In this document: piece after piece, positions 10,857 to 48,667 of the stretch | Numbering within the stretch: the first letter of the stretch is position 1 | Layout of the letters: each line of letters opens with the position of its first letter | Assembly (NCBI RefSeq): GCF_032116555.1 | Contig: NZ_CP134949.1 | Location: 1 to 64,000, forward strand | From: Halorarum halobium | GTDB taxonomy: Archaea; Halobacteriota; Halobacteria; Halobacteriales; Haloferacaceae | Length of the DNA: 64,000 nt | Direction: 5' to 3' | Notes under the pieces: generated by a model | Seen by the model: the letters and a program-made list of their open reading frames with translations, nothing else | Databases searched by the model: none | Told to the model about the DNA's origin: nothing | Translations under genes and position numbers: made by a program

Positions 10857-11015
10857 CCTCGAAAGCCCGCGCGGCCCCTTTCACTCCCGCCCACTGCGCC
10901 TCACCCTCCCCAGCCTCCTGTGCGTTACCTCGGAGCAAACTCCTCGGAAGTCACCCTCGCTTCGCTCGCGTGAGCCTCGCACGAGCGGTCTCGCTACGCT
11001 CGATCGCTGCGCGCC
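10857..11015 (-). repeat. Modular structured intergenic element, family A, copy 1
   Basis: Reverse complement carries GGCGCG..., GGCTGGGGAGGG, GGGCGGGAGTGAAAGGGG and GGGCTTTCGAGG, shared with four other copies. Confidence 0.85.
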
Positions 11016-11042
11016 ACGTGGCCCGTGTCAGGTCGTGCGGTC

Positions 11043-11258
11043 GGCGCGTGCCGGCGGGCCTCCGTTCACGCGAGCGAGCCTGCGAGCGAGGGTGATCTCA
11101 CGAGACCACAGGTCTCGGGGAGTGCCCGCCGGGTGCGCGCGAGGGATGAGCGAGTGAAACGAGCGAATCGGCTGGGAGGCGTGTGGCTGTGCGGGGCGGC
11201 GCAGTGGGTGGGACTGAAAGGGGCCGCACCGAGCCGACAGGTGCGGGGGCTTTCGAGG
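11043..11258 (+). repeat. Modular structured intergenic element, family A, copy 2
   Basis: GGCGCG...CGCGCGAGGGATGAGC...GGCTGGGAGG...GGGTGGGACTGAAAGGGGCCGC...GCGGGGGCTTTCGAGG. Back-to-back with copy 1. Confidence 0.85.
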
Positions 11259-11407
11259 CGTTCGATGCGACAACTGAGTCGACACGCATACCAACTGAGT
11301 CGACACACGATCCGAGAACGACCCGCACTACTGAGCAGCCAAACCGACCGCCTCGAATCGCCAGCGGACGCACAAGACATATCGGCCCGTCGCACCACCA
11401 CCCGAAC

Positions 11408-18693: not shown

Positions 18694-18722
18694 GGGAGTT
18701 GCGATGAGGGATTCAGCCGGGT

Positions 18723-18993
18723 GGCGCGCGTGACGGCGAGCCCCGCAGGGGCGAGCGGACGCGCGCGAGGGACGAGCACCGCAGGCTCGCGAACGCGGTG
18801 AGCGAGCCGAGGAGCACAGGAGGCTGGGGAGGCTGAGGTGCTGTGCGGTGGCGGGGCGGTCTGGGTGGGACTGAAAGGGGCCGCGGCTGTCGGCGAACCC
18901 CGGCGCCTCAAGCACCGCAGGGAGCGAACGAAGTGAGCGACCGAGGAGCACAGAGCGTGCCGCGGGAGCCGACAGCCGCGGGGGCTTTCGAGG
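18723..18993 (+). repeat. Modular structured intergenic element, family A, copy 3
   Basis: All conserved linkers present. 18727-18772 is an exact 46-bp inverted match to 23702-23747. Confidence 0.9.
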
Positions 18994-19108
18994 TGCTCCT
19001 CGCTGAACCCGAACGGGCGACGAGTGCGAAACGTCGAGAATCAAGCCACGCGGCGAATTTCGAGAACAGTCCCCACGAACCTCGACGAACGCCGGAGTCG
19101 AGTGATCC

Positions 19109-23527: not shown

Positions 23528-23751
23528 CCTCGAAAGCCCCCGCGGCCCCTTTCAGTCCCACCCACCGCAACCGCACCGCCCCGCACCTCACCCTCCCCAG
23601 CCTCTTGCGCTTCTCGCTCCCTGCGGTCGCTGTCGTTCGAAAGGCGCTTCGCGCCTTTCGTGATGACGAGACGCCGCTGGCGTCTCGAACCACGATGCTC
23701 ATCCCTCGCGCGCGTCCGCTCGCCCCTGCGGGGCTCGCCGTCACGCGGGTC
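23528..23751 (-). repeat. Modular structured intergenic element, family A, copy 4
   Basis: Reverse complement GGGTGGGACTGAAAGGGGCCGCGGGGGCTTTCGAGG. Exact 46-bp match to copy 3. Confidence 0.9.
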
Positions 23752-23803
23752 ACCGCTACCGGTGGGAAGTCACGTCGCCCGCGAAAATCGCGACCGGGCA
23801 GCC

Positions 23804-48284: not shown

Positions 48285-48516
48285 GGCGCGCGGCGGCCGC
48301 GCGGAGCGCGGCCGCTCGTGCGAGGGACGAGCATCGCAGGCCGAAGGCCGAGGAGCGCAGGAGGCTGGGGAGGGCGAGGTGCGGTGGGTGGGACTGAAAG
48401 GGGTCGGCTGGGTACGCGAACCCCGGACCCGCAAGCACCGCAGGGCGCGAACGGAGTGAGCGACTGAGGAGCGCAGCGTGGTCCGCGGGAGCGTACCCAG
48501 CGGGGGGCTTTCGAGG
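48285..48516 (+). repeat. Modular structured intergenic element, family A, copy 5
   Basis: All conserved linkers present. Hairpin 3 covaries with copy 3. Confidence 0.9.
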
Positions 48517-48667
48517 CAGTCGTCGCTAAATCCGAGCCATCACAGAGTGCGACACGTGATAAACCGCCAGCTGCAGGGGCTTTCGCGGTGGTTACCCCAG
48601 CAATCCCAGCGGCAGCAAAGTCACCTAACCAACTCCCAAAACGTAAGAACCCTCGATCGAACGAACC

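Follow-up and report, generated by a model that had tools for sequence, protein, structure and literature searches.

Transposase-free hairpin repeats were known before from bacteria, where they are named REP or REPIN, and from one haloarchaeal genus, where they are named PATE and SMR. The REP/REPIN repeats are strand-specific hairpins that are thought to act as single-stranded DNA (ssDNA), and in bacteria they are mobilised by RAYT transposases, which belong to the Y1 HUH type. The ends of IS200/IS605 transposons also carry subterminal hairpins, which are recognised as ssDNA by the transposase TnpA, and the right end additionally encodes the guide RNA scaffold of TnpB. For Haloquadratum walsbyi, the passages on these repeats describe PATEs as non-coding, transposase-free elements in many copies that originate from IS605-type ends, have near-terminal palindromes and cause no target duplication (Dyall-Smith et al., 2011; PMC3119063). 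The SMR-As described there measure ~110 bp, show conspicuous inverted ends and are inserted without duplication in palindromes that belong to PATEs and IS605-type elements, so that conglomerates arise, and their mobilisation is termed enigmatic (PMC3119063). Here we describe a family of composite hairpin repeats from Halorarum halobium, which was followed from the first 64,000 nucleotides of contig NZ_CP134949.1 (assembly GCF_032116555.1; this whole stretch, with ~70% G+C, is referred to as the window) into the complete genome (G000) and into relatives that were compared with it (G001-G030). A reading of the sequence alone had pointed out seven hairpins in the window that are built from GNA triloops and tandem GA/GA mismatches. 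These hairpins are parts of a gene-less, many-copy, intergenic mosaic family of hairpin repeats.

All seven hairpins are present at their coordinates with exactly the letters given, as was checked by direct reading, and the exception with a GCG loop at 18795-18797 is present as well. Two of them, 18736-18756 (reading GCGAGCCCCGCAGGGGCGAGC) and 18920-18942 (reading GGGAGCGAACGAAGTGAGCGACC), belong to one composite copy on the plus strand at 18708-19039; the others lie on the plus strand at 48293-48315, 48339-48349 and 11150-11164 and on the minus strand at 23638-23660 and 10989-11003. The composite at 18.7 kb consists of a leader (GGGATTCAGCCGG), module A, a small hairpin, module C, the rod hairpin D and a 3' tail, and its similarity to the family, judged from BLAST coverage, spans 18720-18993, leader and tail being common to subsets of copies. 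Module A (18722-18778, nhmmer module model) is a hairpin clamped by GCGCGCG with a variable GA/GNA apex, followed by GAGGGACGAGCA; its apical hairpin GC-GA-GCCCC-GCA-GGGGC-GA-GC (18736-18756) was found by direct reading and in the RNA fold. The small hairpin GGCTCGC-GA-AC-GCG-GT-GA-GCGAGCC at 18784-18808, also from direct reading, contains the GCG loop. Module C (18822-18884, nhmmer model) is G-rich, reads GGCTGGGGAGG...GGGTGGGACTGAAAGGGGCC and continues into unit D (18864-18992; covariance model R1, 128.9 bits), a rod hairpin of ~127 nt with the helices P1-P4 and an apical GA/GNA hairpin that reads directly as GG-GA-GC-GA-AC-GAA-GT-GA-GC-GA-CC (18920-18942).

BLAST of the copies at 18.7 kb and 48.3 kb against the whole genome, which comprises three contigs, gave 357 matches that merge into 161 regions with a combined length of ~27 kb; all matches but eight are located on the main chromosome C1 (3.32 Mb, 68% G+C), these eight on C3. 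Iterated nhmmer models of the modules found 47 matches of A, 73 of C and 129 of D in the genome, evenly distributed between the strands. Module C precedes D in 58 of 165 composites, ten of which have module A in addition, and the architectures are mixed (CD 40, ACD 6, A 30, D 27). A GGGAATCAGCCGG-like leader and several alternative 3' tails are each found in subsets of copies.

Each of the 165 composites was scanned on its own strand for hairpins in which a triloop sits on an inner stem of 2-5 bp, followed by a 2x2 internal loop and an outer stem with a minimum of 2 bp. The internal loop is GA/GA in 107 of the 214 hairpins found and TC/TC in one, and a GNA triloop is present in 97 of the 107 GA/GA hairpins (GGA 30, GCA 29, GAA 29, GTA 9), compared to a single hairpin that combines TC/TC with a TNC loop. 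In 100 dinucleotide shuffles, GA/GA occurred on average 1.94 times and together with GNA 0.19 times, with a maximum of two. An earlier count with a slightly different map of the regions gave GA/GA in 104 of 259 hairpins, 95 of them with GNA. The pattern is confirmed and statistically very strong. As in the d(C-GNA-G) and sheared GA mini-hairpins, whose tandem GA stands in a pyrimidine-GA-purine context, the triloop is closed by C...G in all 97 GA/GA hairpins with a GNA loop, and a C precedes GA in 88 of them; GA is followed by G in 58 hairpins, by C in 25 and by A in 14. Since all copies are homologous, the hairpin counts do not represent independent events, and the loops flip with the element by construction. 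The informative point is rather that GA and C-GNA-G are fixed while the stems change, of which the 97 hairpins have 26 distinct combinations. In other genera, 61 loci contain 53 GA/GA and 12 TC/TC loops, and 38 versus 9 when combined with GNA or TNC triloops, respectively, these loci being read as windows of 400 nt into which an inverted partner can fall. Perfect palindromes show only a modest bias: among 56 whose stems have 5 bp or more, the loop is GNA in 18, TNC in 8 and different in 30. In the palindromic cassettes K1 and K4, which are described below, both GGA and TCC loops, or both GAA and TTC loops, occur in a single orientation, and the hairpin at 23638-23660 is located within a cassette of that kind. 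Nevertheless, GNA or TNC loops are ~4 times more common in element palindromes than in the rest of the genome (coding 730/7272, other intergenic 216/1847). When hairpins with stems of 4 bp and longer are counted, triloops number 226 (GNA 65, TNC 14) and tetraloops 168 (GNRA 10, TTCG 7).

Unit D (GGGACTGAAAGGGG...GGGGGCTTTCGAG) is the best-conserved part of the composites and has a length of 107-197 nt with a median of 127. An alignment of 26 copies, of which two belong to the window and 24 to other genomes, was folded with RNAalifold, and the consensus is a single unbranched rod with inverted ends. It starts with helix P1 (TGAAAG/CTTTCG), whose first pair is a conserved T.G, followed by a GGG/GGG internal loop, a long P2, P3 and P4, in which the conserved blocks AAGCACCGCAG and GAGGAGCGCAG pair, and the apical GA/GNA hairpin. 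Compensatory changes were found in 24 of 33 pairs. Moreover, 94.9% of the alignment cells can pair compared to 73.3% in shuffles, 154 cells are changed on both sides compared to 48.8, and the covariation score of 0.530 (shuffles 0.154) was reached in none of 500 shuffles, while slid controls, with the partners shifted by 1-3 columns, scored 0.046-0.085. In the covarying or paired columns G.T is found 46 times and A.C eight times (27 versus 8 without the conserved first pair), and the unpaired columns consist of 47.5% G and 29.6% A, thus 77% purine, with an overall 44% G and 19% A on the element strand. This G.T excess together with the purine-rich unpaired columns indicates a purine-rich strand that is built to fold. 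The positions outside Watson-Crick pairing, C-GA-N...N-GA-G, C-GNA-G, GGG/GGG and the conserved T.G, are purine-rich on one strand, and this strand is able to form a compact rod, which the complement cannot. Therefore, a strand-specific fold of the single strand, which is under selection or part of the biology of the element, is well supported. A covarying fold of this type is expected of a structured RNA, and folded ssDNA would give the same result.

The arrangement of the composites resembles that of mobile elements. From 35 pairs of neighbouring composites with a distance of up to 300 nt, 24 are oriented head-to-head, ten in tandem and one tail-to-tail. The GGGGGCTTTCGAG ends of the head-to-head pairs face outward, and the two arms of a doublet differ in subfamily and join close to a central CCACGTGG. 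Furthermore, four recurrent palindromic cassettes of 50-56 nt (model lengths 48-56 nt), K1-K4, are nested in the composites, with 26 (K1), 34 (K2), 10 (K3) and 68 (K4) nhmmer matches. Because a palindrome matches both strands, which is true for every full-length K4 copy listed, K4 would be present at ~34 loci; five of the K3 copies listed are identical in sequence. The cassettes interrupt the host modules at fixed points, after which the host sequence resumes without target duplication. K4 is inserted at CCG^CAG between the AGCACCGCAG and GGAGCGCAG blocks, K2 at GGCTG^GGGAGG in C and at GCGAGG^GACGAG in A, and K3 always after GGCCGCGGCG in D. The D copies at 828636, without K3, and at 833435, with K3, are 99% alike over 104 nt, and between D copies alike to 99.2% the flanks are unrelated and the C modules differ. 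The identity to the nearest copy among 66 full-length D units has a median of 88.7% (range 70.9-100), and therefore most copies are probably old and a few units were copied recently. One pair of D units, C1:437300 and C1:443401, is 100% identical over 123 nt with nearly identical 3' flanks and has the appearance of a segmental duplication at a distance of ~6 kb, not of a transposition. Upstream of the gene starting at ~23431 on the minus strand, G000 and G001 each have an element, alike in position and orientation but with different cassettes and a short and a long D, respectively, whereas G002 has no element at this site. The spacer orthologous to 18694-19108 has 757-855 nt in G001 and G002 and contains a small minus-strand gene, instead of which G000 has the repeat. 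The doublet at 10857-11275 is located at a synteny break: a distance of 29 kb in G001 and of 19 kb in G002 separates its flanking genes, and the matching junction in G002 carries a D unit.

One of two direct links to ssDNA transposons is provided by K1, which is homologous over 57 nt (80-86% identity) to the double hairpin that an IS605-type tnpA-tnpB element carries at its left end in the relatives G006 and G013, which are of two other genera. The two copies of this element differ by a compensatory change, the triloop of the first hairpin being GAA or GCA on the sense strand, and for K1 there are nine matching loci in G000. K4 is found near one tnpB in the relatives and was counted with K1 among the IS605-type left ends. 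The second link is found at the right end of the same element, where, at the stop of tnpB, the hairpin C-GA-GC-GA-ACGGC-GTCA-GCCGT-GA-GC-GA-G has the double GA-tandem build of 18920-18942. A further left-end hairpin with GC-GA-GCGCC...GGCGC-GA-GC arms is located upstream of the K1-like double hairpin at three loci (L023 and L090 in G013, L026 in G006), which suggests that these haloarchaeal transposon ends have tandem GA mismatches quite generally.

The strand-biased GA/GNA hairpins, the covarying D, the nested cassettes, the link of K1 and the doublets together suggest mobile repeats like PATE/SMR and REP/REPIN. We see about an even chance that the family consists of transposase-free mobile hairpin repeats of this kind, with the folded purine-rich single strand as the recognised form. 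The elements would then be copied, or would have been copied formerly, through the folded single strand, the shape of which would be recognised by a putative trans-acting enzyme; we infer both ssDNA rather than RNA as the copied form and the class of this enzyme. D, with its median of 127 nt and its inverted ends, and the cassettes nested without duplication correspond to what the passages on SMR-As report, and the likeness to SMRs and PATEs is one to the descriptions of the HqIRS42/43/55 elements rather than one of compared sequences. However, the repeats of H. halobium are rich in G+C and class-wide, and a GA/GNA build is not described for Haloquadratum in these passages. Different from PATEs, modules A, C and D are unlike the IS605-type ends that were sampled, and the repeats reach their highest abundance in genomes with few TnpA and TnpB. 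Regarding the absence of terminal inverted repeats in PATEs, D has inverted termini, whereas the cassettes are without target duplication and the outer ends of the composites are undefined. As in REP/BIME-REPIN sequences, 161 intergenic regions contain short imperfect palindromes in mosaic modules, and the inverted doublet is a common unit (24 of 35 head-to-head), but the family is archaeal, has longer units and lacks a cognate RAYT/Y1 gene (PF01797) in the whole genome. Common features with IS200/IS605 are K1, the right-end GA-GC-GA build and insertion without duplication, while the repeats have no transposase genes inside or next to them, A, C and D bear no relation to the ends sampled and a bias for one replication strand was not demonstrated.

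Several observations weigh against this explanation. PF01797, the Y1 HUH transposase, has no match in the 99.9%-complete genome, while control genomes were positive, which again makes it probable that most copies are old; for PF04986, PF01446 and PF02407 the genome gave no match either, but since the control genomes were silent as well, these searches are uninformative. The genome contains one tnpB (C1:488790-488990), which has no similarity to the repeats. Across the 31 genomes the number of element matches is inversely related to Y1 (Spearman -0.40) and TnpB (-0.52), which is to be read as a trend since the relatives are not independent. Y1 is present in four of 12 element-rich relatives and in six of nine element-free ones, and the median number of TnpB matches in G000-G030 is 2 in repeat-rich and 18 in repeat-free genomes. 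None of the 35 tnpA/tnpB loci scanned in the relatives had module A, C or D at or beside it. Moreover, a clean pair of filled and empty sites for a whole composite was not found at the 18.7-, 23.6- and 10.9-kb loci in comparison with G001 and G002, so that neither the outer ends nor the insertion targets of A-C-D are exactly defined. The orientation of D along C1 changes in 69 runs compared to 63.4 expected, which speaks against domains; 113 solo composites, which remain from the 161 when 48 members of inverted pairs are omitted, form 46 runs (57.3 expected, standard deviation 5.3) and are thus weakly clustered, but chi-square tests with 8, 12 and 20 bins gave p values of 0.14, 0.52 and 0.036, respectively, and the range of the walk p 0.58. 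The element orientation thus shows no clear replication polarity, which is weak or absent. Finally, RNA parameters credit the GA hairpins more than DNA parameters do, and the conservation of the motifs throughout the class could instead mean a function for the host. Among the roles suggested by the sequence-only reading, a substrate of an HUH endonuclease hence agrees with the homology of K1 to a tnpA-tnpB left end but not with the missing Y1 gene and the abundance opposite to Y1 and TnpB, and a primosome-type signal is not favoured because it would be expected to follow replication polarity.

The fold could also have been selected in RNA, with the transcribed purine strand acting as a noncoding RNA, as a guide-RNA-like relic of IS605 or as a stabiliser or processing site in an untranslated region, which we regard as rather unlikely. 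Sheared tandem GA in the C-GA-G context is a classic motif of RNA too and stabilising there, and as DNA parameters ignore this, the motif alone does not name the nucleic acid. With RNA parameters the whole element reaches -148.3 kcal/mol (z -3.76) on its own strand and -119.7 (z -2.56) on the complement, with DNA parameters -78.3 (z -2.75) and -69.3 (z -3.53). The hairpin at 18920-18942 has -5.2 kcal/mol as RNA and -0.6 on the complement, compared to -0.3 and 0 as DNA; in the RNA fold of 18736-18756, pairing extends beyond the GA/GA loop to the outer GC (-12.0 versus -9.9 for the complement), and perfect palindromes have equal energy on both strands. Thus, the GA hairpins fold in silico at least as well with RNA parameters as with DNA parameters, an outcome that the initial reading had named as refuting it, and GA/GNA is not shown to be a signature of ssDNA. 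What stands of the proposed selection on a strand-specific ssDNA fold is the single-strand fold, with its GA/GA bias, its covariation and its G.T excess, and not the preference for DNA over RNA, as covariation, G.T excess and purine-rich loops fit either. In addition, PATEs and 3' ends of the IS1341 type are abundant noncoding RNAs in Halorubrum and Halobacterium according to the parts of two reports that treat them (PMC10544981; PMC4615843), which by analogy speaks for RNA. On the other hand, Rfam gave no match at gathering score over the whole window and, at E<=5, only a pestivirus 3' untranslated region element and sR60 at chance level, and direct reading found no AT-rich promoter-like stretch inside the repeat. 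In tandem spacers, 32 D units are co-oriented with the genes and 23 opposed. Together with the 65 C-GNA-G triloops compared to 17 GNRA/UUCG tetraloops, and with the doublets and nested cassettes as transposon traits, the lack of a promoter-like stretch and the near-random gene orientation speak for DNA. A scaffold of the TnpB guide RNA in particular was rejected, as the tnpB of the genome is unlike the repeats and D turned up at none of the 35 tnpA/tnpB loci. Another explanation would be descent only, without present selection on any fold, in which GA/GNA was inherited from one ancestor, the arms of the palindromes were kept alike by repair within the hairpin or by gene conversion, and base composition did the rest. 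The homology of all copies, by which the strand bias follows the orientation, the 44% G and 19% A of the element strand and the GGA/TCC loop flips in perfect palindromes, which show that inversion is possible without cost, would agree with it. We consider it quite improbable, since shuffles produce 0.19 GA/GA hairpins with GNA instead of 97, GA and C-GNA-G are fixed across 26 stem combinations and also across genera despite 154 cells with stem changes on both sides (48.8 in shuffles), and G.T exceeds A.C by 46 to 8.

The distribution of the family bears on a role for the host. The 275-nt copy has matches in 22 of the 31 genomes, G000 included, from several families. Model R1 of D, the counts of which saturate at the number of candidates scored and are thus not copy numbers, matches 120 of 151 sampled Halobacteria genomes in 46 of 57 genera and leaves 31 genomes without a match. 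Of 121 genomes sampled across the phylum, 16 have a match, and these fall into the families f1, f2, f12 and f14, whereas no match was obtained there in f11, the fifth family that is also part of the class sample, and none in 102 genomes of 20 other families. An exact 20-mer of D identified the 61 loci in named records, from Halobaculum, Haloglomus, Haloferax, Haloarcula, Halomicrococcus, Halorientalis, Halorussus, Salinirubellus, Natronococcus, Candidatus Halobonum and metagenome bins, and occurs on six haloarchaeal plasmids as well, while phage records contain no match to the element. Genes were called with a crude codon-usage predictor that certainly under-calls (2769 genes, 74% of the genome), and elements overlap these calls by 15-22% on average. 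After 28 of the 129 D matches were set aside because more than half of their length lies inside a predicted gene, the spacers of the other 101 are tandem in 55, divergent in 31 and convergent in 15 cases, which is close to the background of all spacers >100 nt (821, 392 and 245). The repeats might be a DNA mark kept by the host for a conserved halobacterial protein of the nucleoid, recombination, replication or a topoisomerase, bound as duplex, cruciform or transient ssDNA, comparable to the BIMEs of Escherichia coli, which bind IHF and gyrase. The occurrence in most genera of the class with the invariant blocks GGGACTGAAAGGGG and GGGGCTTTC and in none of the other families, the persistence without Y1 transposases and the copy that G000 and G001 retain at orthologous positions would be in line with that. 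We nevertheless hold such a mark to be unlikely, as there is no positional rule relative to genes and no clear one along the chromosome, about a fifth of the class genomes (31 of 151) lack the repeat, the copy common to G000 and G001 is missing in G002, and no partner protein is known. Furthermore, the likeness to the origin boxes beside orc1 is limited to GAAA...GGGG, which leaves unit D as an origin box unsupported. A far-reaching version, to which we assign a minor probability, would be a class-wide system of rod hairpins that is kept and copied without a recognisable HUH transposase, either by an unrecognised enzyme acting on purine-bulged single-strand hairpins in molar KCl or after takeover by the cell for a function at the level of chromosome or RNA. 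If this were true, the inverse relation to IS605-type transposons might even reflect competition with them, or a decoy action of the repeats on them.

Compared to the repeats known before, the family is set apart by its presence in most of the class Halobacteria, by a strongly covarying rod with a one-strand purine code of C-GNA-G and tandem GA, and by thriving without the expected Y1 enzyme. A description of the family was not found in the literature, supplementary tables, where such repeats often appear, not being covered; a text search for motif strings of the element returned no archaeal paper, and a 12-mer matched only unrelated primer lists. The repeats offer a defined substrate for asking how such sequences move or persist in archaea and whether ssDNA or RNA is the relevant form in molar potassium. 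They also matter for annotation, as they occupy many spacers, lie at synteny breaks and generate spurious open reading frames.

The other copies in the window illustrate the mosaic structure. The second composite on the plus strand (48285-48557) contains the A-variant hairpin 48293-48315, GGCC-GAA-GGCC at 48339-48349, module C, D at 48387-48515 (R1 113 bits) and a tail. The third copy lies on the minus strand (23529-23754) and comprises A (23696-23752), a nested cassette K4 (23632-23693), C (23542-23603) and a short D (23529-23562). In the doublet, the left arm (10857-11021, minus strand) has a short D, C, K2 (10925-10973), the hairpin TC-GA-GC-GTA-GC-GA-GA (10989-11003) and the centre CCACGTGG, and the right arm (11030-11275, plus strand) consists of an A2-type hairpin with a nested TTCAC cassette, the hairpin 11150-11164, C2, a shortened D (11207-11257) and a tail. 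In module C (18822-18884 and 48349-48406), the G-strand has at least four G-runs (GGGG, GGG, GGG, GGGG) around a variable (GGTGC)n-like stretch, and judged from these runs a G-quadruplex could form beside the rod hairpin in molar potassium.

Some further observations concern the replicons. Contig C2 (159 kb, 58% G+C) has one D match only, compared to ~38 per Mb on C1, and this near absence of D suggests that C2 is a recent or foreign replicon. The sole tnpB of the genome is located in a low-GC island (C1:488000-490200) directly beside a tRNA gene, which looks like an integrated element. C1 carries two orc1/cdc6 genes, and the organism probably has several replication origins. A 1.2-kb spacer upstream of orc1/cdc6 (C1:129684-130875, 63% G+C) contains inverted repeats similar to origin boxes (TTCCA..GAAACGA.GGGGT.GGGGGG) but no repeat element, and is likely a replication origin.

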